Of a stretch of 23,790 nt of DNA, positions 6,234 through 23,790 are shown in pieces. The translations under genes were made by a program, and so were the position numbers. Source of the stretch: a virus. The stretch lies in UHGV virus genome UHGV-0045959; one strand, 5' to 3'. The notes beneath the pieces are model-generated. The model ran no database searches, was not told where the DNA came from, and saw only the letters and a program-made list of their open reading frames with translations. How positions within the stretch are numbered: position 1 is the first letter of the stretch; the number at the start of each line of letters is the position of its first letter.

Positions 6234-6315
6234 NNNNNNNNNNNNNNNNNNNNNNNNNNNNNNNNNNNNNNNNNNNNNNNNNNNNNNNNNNNNNNNNNNN
6301 NNNNNNNNNNNNNNN
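6234..6315. other. assembly gap (run of N) inside the A-cos cargo island
   Basis: 82 consecutive N; the stop codon of the 827-aa gene lies 11 nt to its right. Confidence 0.99.
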
Positions 6316-6326
6316 TCTTTTACTGT

Positions 6327-8810
6327 TTAACGAGGGTTTCGCGTATAGGTTTCAACTATGTCTGATGCACGTAATTTACATGTGATCAATTGTTCTCTTA
6401 TAAATATCTCATCGTGTCGTTTATCACTTGTACAAATGGCCGTGATAAAACTGAGGATAGATGCTTTAAAACGTTCAAGATCATTTATGGTCATTATTCG
6501 AGACCCTTCGTTTAGTGTTGCGGCATATTCAGGCATATTAGAGTGATGTATCATTATAGGTGTGGCGGTAGCAGTTTGATCATACATGTTTCTGAACCAT
6601 GCACCCGACCCATTTAACTGATTGCAGTCATGCTTACTTATTCTTTCTGCGGTTGCTCCATTTTTGCATTCAATTACTAGATAATTGTTTTCTCCCATTG
6701 CCCATAAATTGTCAGGTCCTTTACCTGTATCATTTTCTGGCCGTTGGCTACGAAAACCGACCAAATATGCAACTTTTTCGATAGCATCTTCGAAGGGATT
6801 CGATGTGCCCTCGGAGAAAATAAGGTTTTCTATTATTGAATTAGTATGCACAACGACTTGATTGGCCGATTCAAAATTACTTCTGAGATAGGAGCTACAT
6901 TCCCTGGCCTGTTCAAGTGCCGCACCATTAAGTCTATTATATGTTACGCCGATTAGTGGTTTTAATACCCGATAGTTATCGTTTGATGCAGACTGAAGCA
7001 ATATCTGAGCTTCAGATTTGTCATATAAGTTTACATATTCCGCAGCATGTTCTTTTAGATAACCCTTATAAACTTTGTCAGCTGTACTACTATCATTTTT
7101 TAGAGTTAAAGCGGCTTGTTGAAACATATTTCGTGATGCTAAGTCATATGCCAATCTTTTATTTATAGTATGCTGGTCAATCTGCTTATTTTCCAATGTT
7201 AAGCCAGTCAATATACCTTTGCTTTTTGAGACCCAGTCAGAATTGCGTAACAGACAATAATCAAGAGCACCTTTGATTGAATCAATAGTTGTATCCGGCA
7301 GTATCGATACCAATTGCTGTGAAAGTTGAATTTGTGCTTTCGTTGCTGGAGAAAACCTTTCTAAGGAGGAGCCAAGGAAAACAGCGCCATTTAATGCTTT
7401 GCCAAGTAAGATCACTCCGCAGAAGTCGTCGCTTGATCTCACTCCTCGCCCCATTCCTTGTTCAATTTTCTGGATAATTTCATCTTTGGTTTTTTCGCTT
7501 CCAAGCAATAAGCTTTGTGAGACTTTATCTATTAGTCTACGAACGTCAGGAAGTCCATCTATTACTAATAGACGACATGCGGTATTTGGTAAATCAATAC
7601 CATCATATCTATTAACTAGGACTACTAAGCCAACATGTTGTGTCCTTAATTCTTGTACACCTTGATAAATTGTATTTTTATCTAATATTCTGTCTGCAAC
7701 ATCTTGCCAAAATCTAGTTCTGTAATCGGATGGTACAATTACAACAACATTATGTTTGGAGGATATCTCCTTGCACATAGCTTTGATATCTACATCAGAA
7801 AGACTAGGGTTTATAACCTGAGGCATTAGTATCATTCTATCACCAATATCACCAATTGTTTTTGGTGTTATCGGATTAGAGAGTGATTCATCCGTTATTC
7901 CGAAGTGGCTCGCTAGAATGGATTCATCGACAAGAGTAGCTGTCATGAATATTTTTCTTCTTGCGTTTGATAGGCTTGGGATCATTTGGATTGGTATGCA
8001 ATGAGGTGATATCTCTATTTTGGAAGCACTTACAACGCATTTCGATAATATTAGATTGTCTTTTATTAATGGCCATTTGAAACTCAAGTCATCATGGTCT
8101 TTATTTTCTAACAAGATTGTCATTATATCATTTATGCTTTCTTGCCATTTCCAAAATGGAACTCTCACATAAGCATTTCTATCGCCGGATTTTATCTCTA
8201 GTGTTTTTGCACCAGCTTGTGTCATTAGTGAATTTTCAAAAATTCTGAATAATTTATCATAGGCAGGGTTGTTTTTTTGAATGCTAATGGAGAATTGTTC
8301 TTCAATTGAAGAAAGGCAAGCGTGAGCATCGTCAATTATTATAGAACCTATTGGTATTCTTTGTCCATCATCTCCAACGCCAAATGCAGAACGTCCATTA
8401 ACCACTTTGAATATATTTGTAACTAAAATTTCTTTACCTGCAATAAATTTGGGGGACCTCTCATCTTGAGTTACAGGTATACCAAGTTGATTAGCCTCCA
8501 AAACCACTTGCTCAACTAGATAGTTGTCAGGAACAACATATACAGCGGGACCTTCTCCTTCATTTATACAGCTTTTAAGAATGATTAACCCAACTGAAGT
8601 TTTACCGCTTCCGGTATTCATTTTTATTACATTGGTTGGGCTTCTCCTTGCTTCATACCATTTTTCCCAGACCTCTGATTGCACATCTCGAGGGTATTGA
8701 AATTTGGTGTCTTTGCTCGGTAGAGCTGTAAATATATCTCGCGGTGGAATCGCTGTGTCGCTATTTACACTGGGCGAAAGCTTGGTTAAATCAAGGAAAA
8801 AACCAGACAT
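6327..8810 (-). CDS. SF2 helicase fused to a C-terminal PD-(D/E)xK-like nuclease module; candidate single-protein anti-phage defence gene
   Basis: 827-aa ORF with GAGGA Shine-Dalgarno 7 nt upstream of the ATG. Helicase motifs in order: I MNTGSGKTS (aa 64-72), II IIIDDAH (aa 157-163), III MTATL, V YDGIDLP, VI QGMGRGVR (aa 451-458). C-terminal GPD (aa 698-700) followed 14 residues later by VIECK (aa 712-716). Markedly AT-rich compared with flanking phage genes. Confidence 0.8.
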   Translation of the reverse strand: MSGFFLDLTKLSPSVNSDTAIPPRDIFTALPSKDTKFQYPRDVQSEVWEKWYEARRSPTNVIKMNTGSGKTSVGLIILKSCINEGEGPAVYVVPDNYLVEQVVLEANQLGIPVTQDERSPKFIAGKEILVTNIFKVVNGRSAFGVGDDGQRIPIGSIIIDDAHACLSSIEEQFSISIQKNNPAYDKLFRIFENSLMTQAGAKTLEIKSGDRNAYVRVPFWKWQESINDIMTILLENKDHDDLSFKWPLIKDNLILSKCVVSASKIEISPHCIPIQMIPSLSNARRKIFMTATLVDESILASHFGITDESLSNPITPKTIGDIGDRMILMPQVINPSLSDVDIKAMCKEISSKHNVVVIVPSDYRTRFWQDVADRILDKNTIYQGVQELRTQHVGLVVLVNRYDGIDLPNTACRLLVIDGLPDVRRLIDKVSQSLLLGSEKTKDEIIQKIEQGMGRGVRSSDDFCGVILLGKALNGAVFLGSSLERFSPATKAQIQLSQQLVSILPDTTIDSIKGALDYCLLRNSDWVSKSKGILTGLTLENKQIDQHTINKRLAYDLASRNMFQQAALTLKNDSSTADKVYKGYLKEHAAEYVNLYDKSEAQILLQSASNDNYRVLKPLIGVTYNRLNGAALEQARECSSYLRSNFESANQVVVHTNSIIENLIFSEGTSNPFEDAIEKVAYLVGFRSQRPENDTGKGPDNLWAMGENNYLVIECKNGATAERISKHDCNQLNGSGAWFRNMYDQTATATPIMIHHSNMPEYAATLNEGSRIMTINDLERFKASILSFITAICTSDKRHDEIFIREQLITCKLRASDIVETYTRNPR

Positions 8811-20321: not shown

Positions 20322-20925
20322 TTCGCGCCTGCTGCCGACCGGCTCATCACCGCTTGAAGTTGCCGCCGCAAAAGCCTGTGCGGAAATTGAAAAAACGCCG
20401 GTCAGTATTCGTGAACTGTGGAACCCGGATACCTGTCCGGCAAATCTGCTGTCGTGGCTGGCGTGGTCATTTTCGGTTGACCGCTGGGATGATAAGTGGC
20501 CGGAAGCGACAAAACGCGCTGTTATCCGCGATGCGTATTTCATTCACTGCCATAAGGGCACTATAGGCGCAATCCGGCGTGTGGTGGAGCCGCTCGGCTA
20601 TCTGATTGAGGTGAGGGAGTGGTGGCAGCTCAACGAGGAACCGGGGACGTTCCGCATCGTTGTTGGCGTGCTTGAGCAGGGTATTACCGAGGAAATGTAT
20701 CAGGAGCTGGAGCGTCTCGTTGCTGATGCAAAACCTGCAAGCCGCCATCTGACGGGACTGGCTATCAGTTTAAGTACAACCGGCAACATTTTTGCCGGTG
20801 CGGGATGCTATCACGGCGACGCCCTGACGGTTTATCCCTACACCCCGGAGGCCATTATTGTCGGAGGGGATTATTTCCCGGCCTCGGCCATTCATTTAAT
20901 TGATAACCTGAGAGTAAACGCATGA
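20314..20925 (+). CDS. I: baseplate / tail-fibre attachment protein (gpI-like)
   Basis: 203 aa between J and the tail-fibre gene, overlapping both neighbours; somewhat longer than the P2 gpI size I recall. Confidence 0.8.
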   Translation: MSDSRLLPTGSSPLEVAAAKACAEIEKTPVSIRELWNPDTCPANLLSWLAWSFSVDRWDDKWPEATKRAVIRDAYFIHCHKGTIGAIRRVVEPLGYLIEVREWWQLNEEPGTFRIVVGVLEQGITEEMYQELERLVADAKPASRHLTGLAISLSTTGNIFAGAGCYHGDALTVYPYTPEAIIVGGDYFPASAIHLIDNLRVNA

Positions 20926-22217
20926 CAGTGAAATACTACGCCATTCTGACTAATCAGGGCGCAGCACGGCTGGCTAACGCGACGATGCTTGGCAGTAAGC
21001 TGAATCTGACGCAAATGGCCGTTGGTGATGCGAATGGTGTCTTGCCGACACCAGACCCGGCACAGACAAAACTGATTAATCAGAAACGCATTGCACCGCT
21101 GAATCTTCTGAGTGTTGACCCGAACAACCAGAGCCAGATTATTGCGGAGCAAATCATCCCTGAGAACGAGGGCGGATTCTGGATCCGTGAGATTGGGCTT
21201 TATGATGATGAAGGCGTACTCATTGCGGTGGCCAACTGCCCGGAAACGTACAAACCGCAGTTACAGGAAGGCAGTGGTCGTACCCAGACTATCCGCATGA
21301 TTCTGGTTGTCACGAATATCGAAGCCATCACGCTGAAAATCGACCCGTCGGTGGTACTGGCGACCCGTAAATATGTGGATGATGAAGTCCTGGAATTAAG
21401 GCTGTATGTGGATGACCAGATGAGAAACCACATTGCCGCACAGGATCCTCATACCCAGTATGCACAGAAACATAATCCGACATTTACCGGAGAACCAAAA
21501 GCCCCGACGCCTGCCGCAGGAAATAACACCACGCGGATTGCGACCACTGAGTTTGTTCAGGCCGCTATTACCGCTCTGATTAACGGCGCGCCAGCCACGC
21601 TGGACACACTGAAAGAAATTGCCGCAGCCATTAACAATGACCCGAAATTCAGCACCACTATTAACAATGCGCTGTCAGGTAAGCAGCCACTGGATGAGAC
21701 GCTGACTCATTTGAGCGGAAAGGATGTTGCCGGCCTTCTCGCATACCTTGGTTTGGGAGAAACGATAAATAGAGCCTCCAGAGCTATGCAGAAATCGGCT
21801 AATGGATCTGATATTTCTGATGTATCAGCCTTCCGAAATGCGCTCCAGTTAGGGACCGCTGCAACACGAGATGTTGGAGCAGATAATGCCTCGAAGTTAC
21901 TGGATTTAGACAGCTTCAGGTCAATGATGTCAGGTAATGGCTACATCTACATTCCATGCATTGCGACGACAGGAAACCCGGTGAAACTTATGTTGCAGTG
22001 GGGAACGGTGGCAACACAAAAGGGAGCTGATGCTGGATATGCCTTACCATTTGCTTTTCCCTATGCAGGCTTGTTTGCGACCGGAAACCGTGGAACATCT
22101 GGCTACAATGCCGCGATGAATGTGCGTATTGCCAGCAGAACGCATATCAGTATTCAGAACTGGTCGCCATCCGGAGAGGGCACCGAAGATTGTTGTTTTA
22201 TCGCGCTGGGGTATTAA
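20922..22217 (+). CDS. H: tail fibre protein (gpH-like): constant N-terminal part plus currently expressed variable C-terminal tip
   Basis: 431 aa with a conserved phage tail-fibre N-terminus (MTVKYYAILTNQGAARLANA...FWIREIGLYDDEGVLIAVAN); the C-terminal 150 aa lie inside the invertible segment. Shorter than P2 gpH. Confidence 0.88.
   Translation: MTVKYYAILTNQGAARLANATMLGSKLNLTQMAVGDANGVLPTPDPAQTKLINQKRIAPLNLLSVDPNNQSQIIAEQIIPENEGGFWIREIGLYDDEGVLIAVANCPETYKPQLQEGSGRTQTIRMILVVTNIEAITLKIDPSVVLATRKYVDDEVLELRLYVDDQMRNHIAAQDPHTQYAQKHNPTFTGEPKAPTPAAGNNTTRIATTEFVQAAITALINGAPATLDTLKEIAAAINNDPKFSTTINNALSGKQPLDETLTHLSGKDVAGLLAYLGLGETINRASRAMQKSANGSDISDVSAFRNALQLGTAATRDVGADNASKLLDLDSFRSMMSGNGYIYIPCIATTGNPVKLMLQWGTVATQKGADAGYALPFAFPYAGLFATGNRGTSGYNAAMNVRIASRTHISIQNWSPSGEGTEDCCFIALGY
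21736..21761. other. left recombination (crossover) site of the invertible tail-fibre segment (gix/cix/hix-like)
   Basis: 26-bp TTCTCGCATACC-TT-GGTTTGGGAGAA with imperfect dyad symmetry; its reverse complement matches the first 14 bp of the right site and 20 of 26 positions of the hix-type consensus as I recall it. Lies inside H at codons 272-280 (LLAYLGLGE). Confidence 0.7.
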
Positions 22218-22219
22218 GA

Positions 22220-22636
22220 ATGAATAAATTTTATAAAGGCTCTTTCTATCCGAAAGCACTAAAAGAGGTATATATCAGCGCCGGTTCATGGCCTGAAAAT
22301 GGCGTTGATGTTGATGATGAAACAATAGCAATTTACACAGGCGTAGCGCCAGAAGGCAAAACGCTGGGGGCTGATAAAAATGGTAATCCTGCATGGATTG
22401 ATATCCCGCCACTCTCCGCTGAACAACAGATTATTCAGGCTGAACAGAAAAGAACGGTATTGCGTTCAATGGCTGATAAGGAAATAGTCTGGAGACAGGA
22501 TGCTTTTGATGCGGAAATCGCGACGGCAGAAGAAACCGCCGCGTTGTCTGAATGGAAAAAATATCGGGTCTTACTGATGCGCGTTGATACATCAAATCCC
22601 GTCTGGCCTACGCCTCCGGGGGAGCAGGCCAATTGA
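22220..22636 (+). CDS. G: tail fibre assembly chaperone (gpG/Tfa-like) for the expressed fibre tip
   Basis: ORF 22190..22636; ATG at 22220 (MNKFYKGSFYP), 3 nt after the H stop. C-terminus VDTSNPVWPTPPGEQAN is the conserved Tfa C-terminal motif. Confidence 0.8.
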   Translation: MNKFYKGSFYPKALKEVYISAGSWPENGVDVDDETIAIYTGVAPEGKTLGADKNGNPAWIDIPPLSAEQQIIQAEQKRTVLRSMADKEIVWRQDAFDAEIATAEETAALSEWKKYRVLLMRVDTSNPVWPTPPGEQAN

Positions 22637-23228
22637 TATCCGGCGCGGTGCTGGTATCAGTTACCGTCACCGCGTCAATGTAATCCAGCACGACGTTAAG
22701 CCGGGTGGTTTCTGTCTGCGTCAGTTTTCGCCCGGCCTGCAATTTCAGTTGAATCAGATTAATGGAAGCCATTGCAGTATCAATCAGTGACTGTCGCTGT
22801 GTTTCTGCCGCGCCTACTGCGGCGCTATGCTGTGCCTCAGTATCTGTCACCCATTTCTCACCATCCCATTCATCGTATGGCGTTAACGGGGCGACAGTGG
22901 TTGTGTTTTCAGGGTAATCCCCCGGAGTGGTGATTTCTGCTGCCTCACGGGTTTCTGTGTTATAGACTGTCTCACCCCGATGGTCCGGCACGTACTCCCA
23001 CGCGGTCAGGTCGGCTGTGCGGCAAATTGCATAACCAGCCCGCCTTTCCCCGGGGGCATCAGTGCATGAATGTGCAGGAAGGCCAACGCCCACAGCCAGA
23101 TATTCGGTTGACGTGCAAAGGTATTCCCGCGTCTTATTATCGTAGCTGTGGACAACAACCTCTCCTGCAACTGTTGCCAGCCGCGATTCATTCAGCACCG
23201 CTGTAGTCATGGTTTTCTTGCTCATCAT
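22608..23228 (-). CDS. alternative tail fibre assembly chaperone (Tfa') serving the silent fibre tip
   Basis: 206 aa on the minus strand; C-terminus VTDTSTAPDINWPAPPEA parallels the C-terminus of the plus-strand Tfa; its 3' end overlaps that gene by 29 bp. Confidence 0.78.
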   Translation of the reverse strand: MMSKKTMTTAVLNESRLATVAGEVVVHSYDNKTREYLCTSTEYLAVGVGLPAHSCTDAPGERRAGYAICRTADLTAWEYVPDHRGETVYNTETREAAEITTPGDYPENTTTVAPLTPYDEWDGEKWVTDTEAQHSAAVGAAETQRQSLIDTAMASINLIQLKLQAGRKLTQTETTRLNVVLDYIDAVTVTDTSTAPDINWPAPPEA

Positions 23229-23740
23229 GCAGCCCTTACGATGTAGTTAAATGCAATGTTACGTGGCCTTGCATAACCCAGATACTGAATCCCCCAGGCT
23301 CCCACTGGAACGGGGTTCCAGATATGTTCTGTAGGTATACTTTTCGCTCTGAGAATATCTGAATTGGTTTCAGTTTTATCCCATCCCAGCAGGGCAATGT
23401 CGTTTACCGAAAACTGCACCACGCTGTCGGGTGATATATTGGCTTCCTGAACCAGATAAGAGCCTTTTTGCCACGACAACAACGTCCGGCTACTGTCCAC
23501 TCCGCGCCCGTCATCCCAGCCACGAATAAATTCACCACGTAAATCAGGCAATATATTTGTCGGGTAAGCCTTTGCCAGTTCCGGGTATTCTTCAGCAGAA
23601 AATGCCGCCCCGTTGCATTTCAGCCAGCCTGTTGGCAGTGTGGCTGAAGGCCACGGAACAGGCACACCAACGGGTAATACAGAGCCTTCTCCCAAACCAA
23701 CGTTTATGAAAATGCAGAGATAACGGGCAAGTGGCATCAT
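23225..23740 (-). CDS. alternative tail-fibre C-terminal cassette (Sv'-like), silent in this orientation
   Basis: 171-aa ORF containing a phage tail-collar-like motif LPDLRGEFIRGWDDGRG. Residues 14-18 VGLGE are encoded by the right crossover site and match the LGLGE junction in H. Only sequence downstream of the crossover would be fused to H after inversion. Confidence 0.75.
   Translation of the reverse strand: MMPLARYLCIFINVGLGEGSVLPVGVPVPWPSATLPTGWLKCNGAAFSAEEYPELAKAYPTNILPDLRGEFIRGWDDGRGVDSSRTLLSWQKGSYLVQEANISPDSVVQFSVNDIALLGWDKTETNSDILRAKSIPTEHIWNPVPVGAWGIQYLGYARPRNIAFNYIVRAA
23687..23712. other. right recombination (crossover) site of the invertible segment
   Basis: TTCTCCCAAACC-AA-CGTTTATGAAAA; first 14 bp identical to the reverse complement of the left site, central AA dinucleotide matching. 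Confidence 0.7.
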
Positions 23741-23767: not shown

Positions 23768-23790
23768 ATGCTTATTGGCTATGTACGCGT
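23768..23790 (+). CDS. serine DNA invertase (Gin/Cin/Hin/Pin family), 5' fragment truncated by window end
   Basis: ATG at 23768 followed by codons for MLIGYVRV, the characteristic N-terminus of Gin/Cin/Hin-type invertases (catalytic Ser expected at the next codon); directly adjacent to the right crossover site. Confidence 0.65.

Follow-up and report, generated by a model that had tools for sequence, protein, structure and literature searches.

Gene content of the tail-fibre region

The window (the whole stretch of DNA that was analysed, 23,790 nt) belongs to a P2-like prophage, which is located between cpxP and fieF in E. coli. In the identical prophage of CFS3273, PGAP annotation gives the P2 gene order (int-C-cox..A, Q-P, O-N-M-L-X-Y-K-lysABC-R-S-V-W-J-I-H-G .. 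FI-FII-E-T-U-D-ogr) with products including "phage major capsid protein, P2 family", GpE, late control D and OgrK. This gene order and these P2-family structural proteins are those of a P2-like prophage (Peduoviridae). At the DNA level, the part encoding H residues 1-258 is 98% identical to a Peduovirus record, and pro483, a related phage considered below, is classified as Peduovirus.

Near the right end of the window, the tail-fibre gene H (PGAP name in identical genomes: "phage tail protein") runs into a segment bordered by two inverted sites (Table 1). The constant part of H lies outside the segment and two alternative tips lie within it. A separate chaperone accompanies each of the tips, and each orientation puts one tip in frame. 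The sequence-only reading had placed a tip and chaperone on the + strand and a tail-collar tip with another chaperone on the - strand, and the Pfam and PHROG assignments agree with this. The two chaperone genes overlap convergently by 29 nt. For tfa', PGAP sets the start at 23210, which gives 200 aa, and the mechanical ORF of the silent tip extends beyond the segment to an ATG at 23740 (23225-23740, - strand). Tail-fibre regions are highly mosaic.

Table 1. Features of the invertible tail-fibre locus (positions in the window)
Feature	Position	Strand	Description
Tail-fibre gene H, as assembled	20922-22217	+	431 aa; PF12571 N-terminus 5.8e-62, PF21882 tip
H constant part	20922 to about 21749	+	left of segment
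Left crossover site	21736-21761		TTCTCGCATACC-TT-GGTTTGGGAGAA; inside H coding sequence, encodes ..AYLGLGE..
Invertible segment	21749-23699		1951 bp between the two central TT dinucleotides
Variable tip Hv	21750-22217	+	Gp53-like C-terminal domain (Gp53-like_C)
tfa	22220-22636	+	chaperone for currently expressed tip; 138 aa; Caudo_TAP 9.7e-32; PHROG 188
tfa'	22608-23228	-	chaperone for silent tip; 206-aa ORF; Caudo_TAP 2.6e-31; PHROG 105
Silent tip Hv'	23225-23699	-	tail-collar domain; Collar PF07484 2.7e-14; PHROG 523 "tail collar fiber protein" 1e-62
Right crossover site	23687-23712		reverse complement is TTTTCATAAACG-TT-GGTTTGGGAGAA
Serine DNA-invertase gene, 5' end	23768-23790	+	first 23 nt (MLIGYVR, codons 1-7); continues past window end
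Invertase/ISEc22 junction			IS present: GTCAACAAAT / GTAAGCGTCG (IS side GTAAGCG); IS absent: GTCAACAAATGACCAGAAC

Crossover sites

Sites of the Din family consist of two imperfect 12-bp half-sites flanking a 2-bp core, which is identical in both sites. A repeat search returned inverted arms at 21733-21761 and 23687-23715 (29 nt, 79% complementary, 1925 nt apart). Within them lies the 14-mer TTGGTTTGGGAGAA, of which the 23.8-kb window has exactly two copies, one per strand (21748-21761 on +, 23687-23700 on -). By chance about 0.17 matches would be expected, and two copies were attained in 1 of 100 shuffles. Read as 12+2+12, the left and right sites are identical at 21 of 26 positions, with the central TT and the inner half-site GGTTTGGGAGAA common to both. 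Two inverted sites of about 26 bp are thus present as had been proposed from the sequence, each with imperfect 12-bp half-sites around an identical 2-bp core; the 14-bp core is exact and the matching dinucleotide is real.

In order to compare, known crossover sites were taken from real Mu, P7, e14 and pro483 records. The right site is identical to the e14 and pro483 sites over its whole length (26 of 26 positions) and the left site is identical to the e14 left site at 23 of 26; e14 shares the central TT and the inner half-site as well. This half-site matches P7 cix at 10 of 12 positions, and Mu gix has the same AAACC-NN-GGTTT frame as the window sites. The central dinucleotide is TT here, as in cix and pix, but TC in Mu.

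Both orientations in natural genomes

An in-silico flip at the central TT produces an in-frame 433-aa protein, H', in which the collar tip is fused to the constant part of H, and PGAP annotates exactly this protein in flipped genomes. The flipped sequence is found without a mismatch (2891 of 2891 nt) in three complete E. coli genomes, EJN001, EBJ001 and 11899A_LBHALD. Strain 720632 (99.8-99.93% identical) and the IMG/VR contig UViG_2925914267 are also flipped, and both have an intact invertase gene. The exact arrangement of the window, unflipped, is found in 60 complete genomes of an ST167-type clone. Both orientations therefore occur in nature (60 genomes unflipped; 4 genomes and 1 IMG/VR contig flipped), and the segment is a real Din-family invertible switch that swaps the tail-fibre tip. 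In PGAP the two states appear as different proteins (WP_000216970 and WP_069067655) in otherwise identical genomes. As for origin, 11899A_LBHALD comes from Senegal, EJN001 and EBJ001 from China.

The invertase gene and its interruption by ISEc22 in the closest genomes

Din-family invertases are small serine recombinases with Resolvase and HTH_7 domains and a catalytic Ser9/10, encoded adjacent to the segment. The gene had been expected downstream of 23768; with a small correction its ATG occupies 23768-23770, and just the first 23 nt are inside the window. The intact sister invertase is a 197-aa protein with Resolvase and HTH_7 domains (PF00239 and PF02796), which matches the Mu Gin structures 3UJ3 and 4M6F (E=7e-95); its sequence identity is 80.7% with Mu Gin and 81.3% with P1 Cin.

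In all complete genomes with the exact arrangement of the window (60 of 60), ISEc22 interrupts the gene at codon 11/12, and a junction that runs from the silent tip through the 5' end of the invertase into ISEc22 is present in these 60 genomes. The insertion is 2.46 kb long, lies about 10-11 nt past the window end and is accompanied by an 8-bp target duplication, CAACAAAT. The remnant on its 3' side reads ..AARLPTNDQ.., in which Ser9 is replaced by Pro, and the catalytic Ser9 is lost. The closest relative, CFS3273, which differs from the window by 3 mismatches in 17.5 kb and two N-gaps, carries ISEc22. One IMG/VR draft contig that shares this junction stops about 100 nt inside the element. The window itself ends about 10 nt short of the insertion point, which is what a draft contig breaking at a repeated IS would show. 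Very probably, judging from these sequences, the invertase in the lineage of the window is split by ISEc22 at codon 11/12; as the window ends before the insertion point, its own source would carry the element by analogy with the closest genomes. Together, a broken invertase gene and a lack of inverted reads under deep coverage were to have spoken against the sequence-only reading. One half of this was found, in that the invertase is not intact in the closest complete genomes, which leaves the identity of the element unaffected and the local copy crippled.

Within the IS-bearing clone, the ratio of window orientation to flipped orientation is about 60:3. The three flipped genomes of this clone carry the identical ISEc22 insertion over 3160 nt, so at least one inversion took place without the cognate enzyme. 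11899A_LBHALD was considered as an IS-free genome and rejected: both ends of the IS are present, at two chromosomal locations (rearrangement or misassembly).

The insertion also touches a putative enhancer. In Din-family enhancers a pair of Fis sites, with a spacing of about 48 bp, lies in the 5' region of the invertase gene. In the intact sister gene the initial 100 nt are strongly conserved, at 87% mean column identity in comparison with cin of P7, gin of Mu and pinE of e14, and this conserved part covers the stretch homologous to the annotated enhancer of P7 cin (+19..+86). Two G..C 15-mers read by eye in the sister gene, at +22..+36 and +71..+85, are candidate Fis sites. The ISEc22 insertion point falls within the stretch homologous to the P7 enhancer and splits the first of these 15-mers. 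This switch may depend on Fis and the putative enhancer.

Search for an invertase acting in trans

On the EJN001 chromosome, blastn matches to the invertase gene were found at just two places, the split gene and a second place that was considered as an intact invertase and proved to be a pinH pseudogene fragment. Extra match places were rejected as invertase homologues because their number equals that of the other ISEc22 copies. EJN001 has no e14 at the icd locus, no Rac at the ttcA locus and no Qin at the ydfJ locus, and on its sole plasmid, the IncX3-type pNDM5_EJN001, the one recombinase is just 24% identical. Across the chromosomal nucleotide matches, these three loci and the single plasmid, no intact Gin-family invertase was found in EJN001. 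That a distant, unrecognised recombinase, or a route independent of enhancer or invertase, flips pix-type sites in E. coli seems rather doubtful to us; as an alternative, a phage or plasmid may have supplied an invertase transiently.

Comparison with known inversion systems

The nearest counterpart is the P-segment of e14 in K-12 (stfP-tfaP, tfaE-stfE, pinE), which has the same order of constant part, tip with chaperone, inverted chaperone with tip, and invertase. Its tfaP and tfaE overlap convergently by the same 29 nt as the chaperone genes of the window, and pinE is 84% identical to the invertase at the DNA level over 394 nt. However, e14 is a defective lambdoid element at icd with another tip cassette on the + strand, whereas here a P2-like myovirus prophage lies at cpxP/fieF and its invertase is disrupted by an IS in the closest genomes. 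Coexisting orientations of e14 were demonstrated experimentally (PMC4272514).

Invertible loci in P2-like phages, such as the prophages of EPEC E2348/69, pro483 and Fels-2 with its invertase, belong to the same phage family and occupy the same position, between H/G and FI, where P2 has Z/fun. For example, phase variation was detected by sequencing in two P2-like prophages of EPEC (PMC4272514), and invertases are frequent at the P2 Z/fun hotspot (bioRxiv 10.1101/2024.10.15.618418). A study of P2-like diversity (PMC13100340) does not mention invertases. The annotations of pro483, Fels-2 and others include a DNA invertase. That of pro483 is 96% identical and its right site is the same, but its + strand tip cassette is different, and loci of this type differ from that in the lineage of the window, where the invertase is split by ISEc22. 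The statement that canonical P2 has a longer H and no switch also holds, as P2 has a 669-aa H and a 175-aa G, then Z/fun and no invertase.

The organisation had been likened to the Mu G and P1 C switches, and indeed Mu G and P7 C show the same layout. The Mu G/Gin and P1-P7 C/Cin systems share the logic of Sc with Sv/U against U'/Sv', the 26-bp sites and the 2-bp crossover; an enhancer is annotated in the 5' end of the P7 invertase gene, the Mu and P1 invertases are about 81% identical to the intact sister copy, and the + strand cassette of the window is 98% identical to its counterpart in the Mu-like phage phi458. They differ in phage backbone and in segment length, about 3-4 kb against 1.95 kb here. 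From the above, this class of inversion switch is already well described for P2-like prophages, and the present one is genuine but ordinary.

Discussion

We consider it probable (about 0.85) that the locus is a Din-family (Pin/Cin/Gin/Hin-type) switch in a P2-like prophage, of which the invertase is probably split by the IS, so that the switch is nearly frozen and flips rarely through activity from elsewhere. In the proposed mechanism, the late V-operon transcript would pass from the constant 5' region of H on into the segment. The orientation in the window would give H with the Gp53-like tip and its chaperone, and a 180-degree flip between the 26-bp sites would give H' with the collar-type tip and the other chaperone; the two forms presumably differ in receptor specificity. 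Normally the serine invertase, whose gene follows directly on the right, would catalyse the flip, and Fis would probably be bound at an enhancer within the 5' end of that gene. ISEc22 at codon 11/12 would remove the catalytic Ser9 and cut the putative proximal Fis site, which would leave the switch nearly frozen with the Gp53-like tip, and the rare flips may depend on activity supplied from elsewhere. The segment is probably nearly, not absolutely, locked, as three IS-bearing genomes are flipped.

The observed inversion leaves almost no room for a chance inverted repeat in a mosaic tail-fibre region, with the - strand genes as a leftover cassette that never inverted. The known mosaicism of such regions would suit this explanation, but it is refuted by the occurrence of the two orientations among natural genomes; the fused gene stays in frame, an invertase gene is adjacent and one site is fully identical to the functional e14 site. 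A more serious question is whether the switch is fully active, the source of the window being free of ISEc22, with an intact invertase beyond the window end and an assembly that shows the majority orientation. Related copies with an intact invertase do exist (720632, UViG_2925914267 and pro483) and the window shows an unblemished MLIGYVR start. However, the two near-identical intact copies, 720632 and UViG_2925914267, are in the other orientation, whereas ISEc22 is present in every complete genome with the window orientation and in CFS3273, and the window breaks off just before the insertion point like a draft contig at a repeated IS. We regard full activity as improbable.

It is equally improbable, in our judgement, that the locus is a dead fossil with no site-specific inversion after the IS insertion, and that the flipped IS-bearing genomes result from misassembly, from identical IS insertions that arose independently, from homologous replacement or from a rare inversion, associated with replication, between the short inverted repeats. 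The strong skew in orientation, the cut in the putative enhancer and the failure to find a candidate Gin-family enzyme in EJN001 point in this direction. Yet the flipped copies are the predicted site-specific product without a mismatch and share the same IS insertion; misassembly is unlikely, since the repeats are just 14-17 bp, far below read length, and the Senegalese and Chinese genomes are of different sources. Gin, Cin, Pin and Hin cross-complement one another, which also argues against a dead element.

The new detail is the ISEc22-split invertase in the clone, and no new biological question is opened. The main value lies in annotation: the four genes bear the PGAP labels "phage tail protein / tail fiber assembly protein" with no indication of a switch, so that genomes which are otherwise the same seem to encode different proteins depending on orientation. 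In the ST167-type clone, which is widespread and carbapenem-resistant, the copy disrupted by the IS is a small natural experiment on the orientation that remains, about 60:3, after a Din switch has lost its enzyme.

Both orientations of the fibre segment occur in E. coli genomes

We cut the window in silico at the central TT of the two crossover sites and turned 21749-23699 round. After this flip, the tail-fibre gene H (20922-22217, + strand) gives H', a fusion of its constant part with the other tip, which is 433 aa long and in frame (...AYLGLGE / GSVLPVGVPVPWP...). A 600-nt query spanning the left junction expected after the flip has perfect matches in E. coli EJN001, EBJ001 and 11899A_LBHALD and a 99.8% match in 720632, and the entire flipped stretch 20900-23790 matches over 2891 of 2891 nt in EJN001 and 11899A and at 99.93% in 720632. 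The fused 433-aa protein is annotated by PGAP in the flipped genomes, and the flipped junction is also present on one IMG/VR contig. Sixty complete genomes carry the orientation of the window with 100% identity. The very same element therefore occurs naturally in either state, and its breakpoints fall within the core common to both sites. These observations decide the question for site-specific inversion rather than chance. The invertible segment proposed by the sequence-only reading is thus supported by genomes of both orientations.

Crossover sites and segment content

A repeat search of the window gave 21733-21761 / 23687-23715 as a single long inverted pair, and the 14-mer TTGGTTTGGGAGAA has two exact copies in the window, one on either strand (expected 0.17), confirming two inverted sites with a shared core and central dinucleotide. 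The left and right sites are identical at 21 of 26 positions, and the central TT and the inner half-site are common to both. PHROG assignments for the segment genes are concordant with the Pfam domains, and both agree with the proposed content of one tip and chaperone on each strand.

Sites and genes of the invertible fibre segment and its invertase
Feature	Position	Strand	Detail
Left site (12+2+12)	21736-21761		TTCTCGCATACC-TT-GGTTTGGGAGAA
Right site (12+2+12)	23687-23712		reverse complement: TTTTCATAAACG-TT-GGTTTGGGAGAA
3' end of H, Gp53-like tip	in segment	+	Pfam
Caudo_TAP chaperone	in segment	+	Pfam
Second Caudo_TAP chaperone	in segment	-	Pfam
Collar-domain tip	in segment	-	Pfam
Invertase start	23768		ATG, MLIGYVR; gene continues past window end
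ISEc22	8902-11356 of L002 (compared genome locus)		IS66 family, 2455 bp; transposase annotated as frameshifted

The silent-tip ORF extends through the right site as far as an ATG at 23740 (23700-23740, - strand) and is therefore reported as a 171-aa 'phage tail protein' in both the ORF list and PGAP. Its first ~14 residues belong to no expressed fibre.

The segment is a mosaic, in which window 21748-22609 shares 98% identity with the Mu-like phage phi458 and 22604-23708 shares 87% identity with HK97 stf/tfa. These homology blocks have both their borders at the crossover sites and the mid-segment junction, so either half-segment is an exchangeable, portable cassette. Crossover sites as exchange points for fibre cassettes are a long-standing idea (Sandmeier, as cited in PMC8986868), and the homology borders are consistent with it.

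Prophage setting and clone

The window covers the left two-thirds of a P2-like prophage whose integration site lies between cpxP and fieF. Compared with the genome locus L009 (NZ_CP026932.2), window nt 1 directly follows the cpxP stop codon, and the remainder of the prophage (FI..D, ogr) comes after the IS-split invertase. Against E. coli CFS3273 the window shows no differences other than 3 mismatches and two N-runs (53-112 and 6234-6315; 60 and 82 nt), which stand where the CFS3273 prophage has short GC-rich hairpins, indicating that the window is a draft scaffold. Inflated runs of C and G border the first N-run.

The complete genomes matching the window are one clone, with names including Sanji, WCHEC005237, AR_0149-0151 and 'ST167'. 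In most clone-mates an extra IS21-family element, ISEc12, separates the helicase and portal genes (between window 8810 and 9182); it is lacking in the window and CFS3273. A sub-lineage (e.g. strain 'ST167') has a deletion that begins inside gene A, extends to the silent tip and adjoins ISEc12. The helicase itself, an 827-aa DEAD/DEAH-box protein (6327-8810, - strand), is flanked by gene A (replication) and gene Q (portal), at the P2 old/tin hotspot, and is a full-length match to the PADLOC candidate defence family PDC-S28 (1054 bits).

The invertase is split by ISEc22 in the matching genomes

The sequence-only reading had looked to an intact invertase downstream of 23768; the gene does start there, and in 60 genomes it is split by ISEc22. 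The split form (4/2-1, CFS3273, EJN001 and others) reads ATGCTTATTGGCTATGTACGCGTGTCAACAAAT / GTAAGCG...(2455-bp ISEc22)...CGCTTAC / CAACAAATGACC, with the insertion at codon 11/12 and an 8-bp target duplication, CAACAAAT. The upstream stub keeps 11 invertase residues before reading enters ISEc22. The downstream ORF (PGAP 'recombinase family protein') has ..AARLPTNDQ.. where the intact gene has ..YVRVSTNDQ.., replacing by Pro the catalytic Ser9, the nucleophile by what is established for Gin and Hin. The insertion point (+33/+34) also lies within the homologous counterpart of the annotated enhancer of P7 cin (+19..+86), a stretch highly conserved among the window-type invertase gene, cin, gin and pinE, where ISEc22 would cut a G..C 15-mer at +22..+36, a putative proximal Fis site.

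The window arrangement is found in 60 genomes, and a junction joining the silent tip and the 5' end of the invertase gene to ISEc22 is also found in 60; no complete genome combines the window orientation with an intact invertase. Because the window stops about 10-11 nt short of the insertion point, and a separate draft contig from IMG/VR that has this junction stops ~100 nt into ISEc22, the window's source very probably carries the insertion, just beyond the window end.

Orientation skew and residual flips

In the ISEc22-bearing clone the two orientations stand at about 60:3, a skew compatible with a switch that is almost frozen. All three flipped genomes (EJN001, EBJ001, 11899A_LBHALD) bear the identical ISEc22 insertion, and therefore at least one inversion is later than the insertion. 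EJN001 has 0 mismatches across 3160 nt spanning the ISEc22 junctions; 11899A_LBHALD keeps both ISEc22 ends, but at separate loci about 1 Mb apart in the assembly.

Trans-complementation by another Din invertase is the classical explanation for flips without the cognate enzyme. EJN001 lacks e14, Rac and Qin, the only other chromosomal match to the invertase gene by blastn is a pinH fragment, and its single plasmid (IncX3-type, NDM-5) carries only an unrelated recombinase with 24% identity. Further weak match places were rejected as invertase homologues, being explained by other ISEc22 copies. The EJN001 flip may be due to a distant recombinase or to an invertase brought in transiently by a phage or plasmid.

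Relationship to known inversion systems

The intact sister invertase of strain 720632 (197 aa, Resolvase and HTH_7 domains) matches the Mu Gin structures 3UJ3/4M6F (E about 1e-94) and shares 96% identity with the invertase of pro483, ~86% with that of Fels-2 and 81% with each of P1 Cin and Mu Gin; close homologues occur in at least 115 phage records. Comparison sites were taken from the real e14, pro483, P7 and Mu records. The e14 sites are CTCTCGAAAACC-TT-GGTTTGGGAGAA and TTTTCATAAACG-TT-GGTTTGGGAGAA, the second of which, like the pro483 site, is identical to the window right site (26/26). P7 cix reads ...AAACC-TT-GGTTTAAGAGAA and Mu gix TTATCCAAAACC-TC-GGTTTACAGGAA. The suggested Mu G / P1 C-type organisation is borne out by e14, Mu and P7, which share the layout of the window segment, and in e14 the two chaperone genes have the same 29-nt convergent overlap. 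Canonical P2, as the sequence-only reading stated, has a longer H (669 aa) and no switch: G (175 aa), a terminator and Z/fun follow, without an invertase.

Invertible fibre loci of P2-like prophages were detected experimentally in EPEC E2348/69 (PMC4272514), and a recent survey notes that this very P2 hotspot often carries DNA invertases with inverted neighbour genes (bioRxiv 10.1101/2024.10.15.618418). The window switch is an unremarkable further case of this already known class, and its one mildly interesting feature is an IS-crippled invertase together with rare residual flips.
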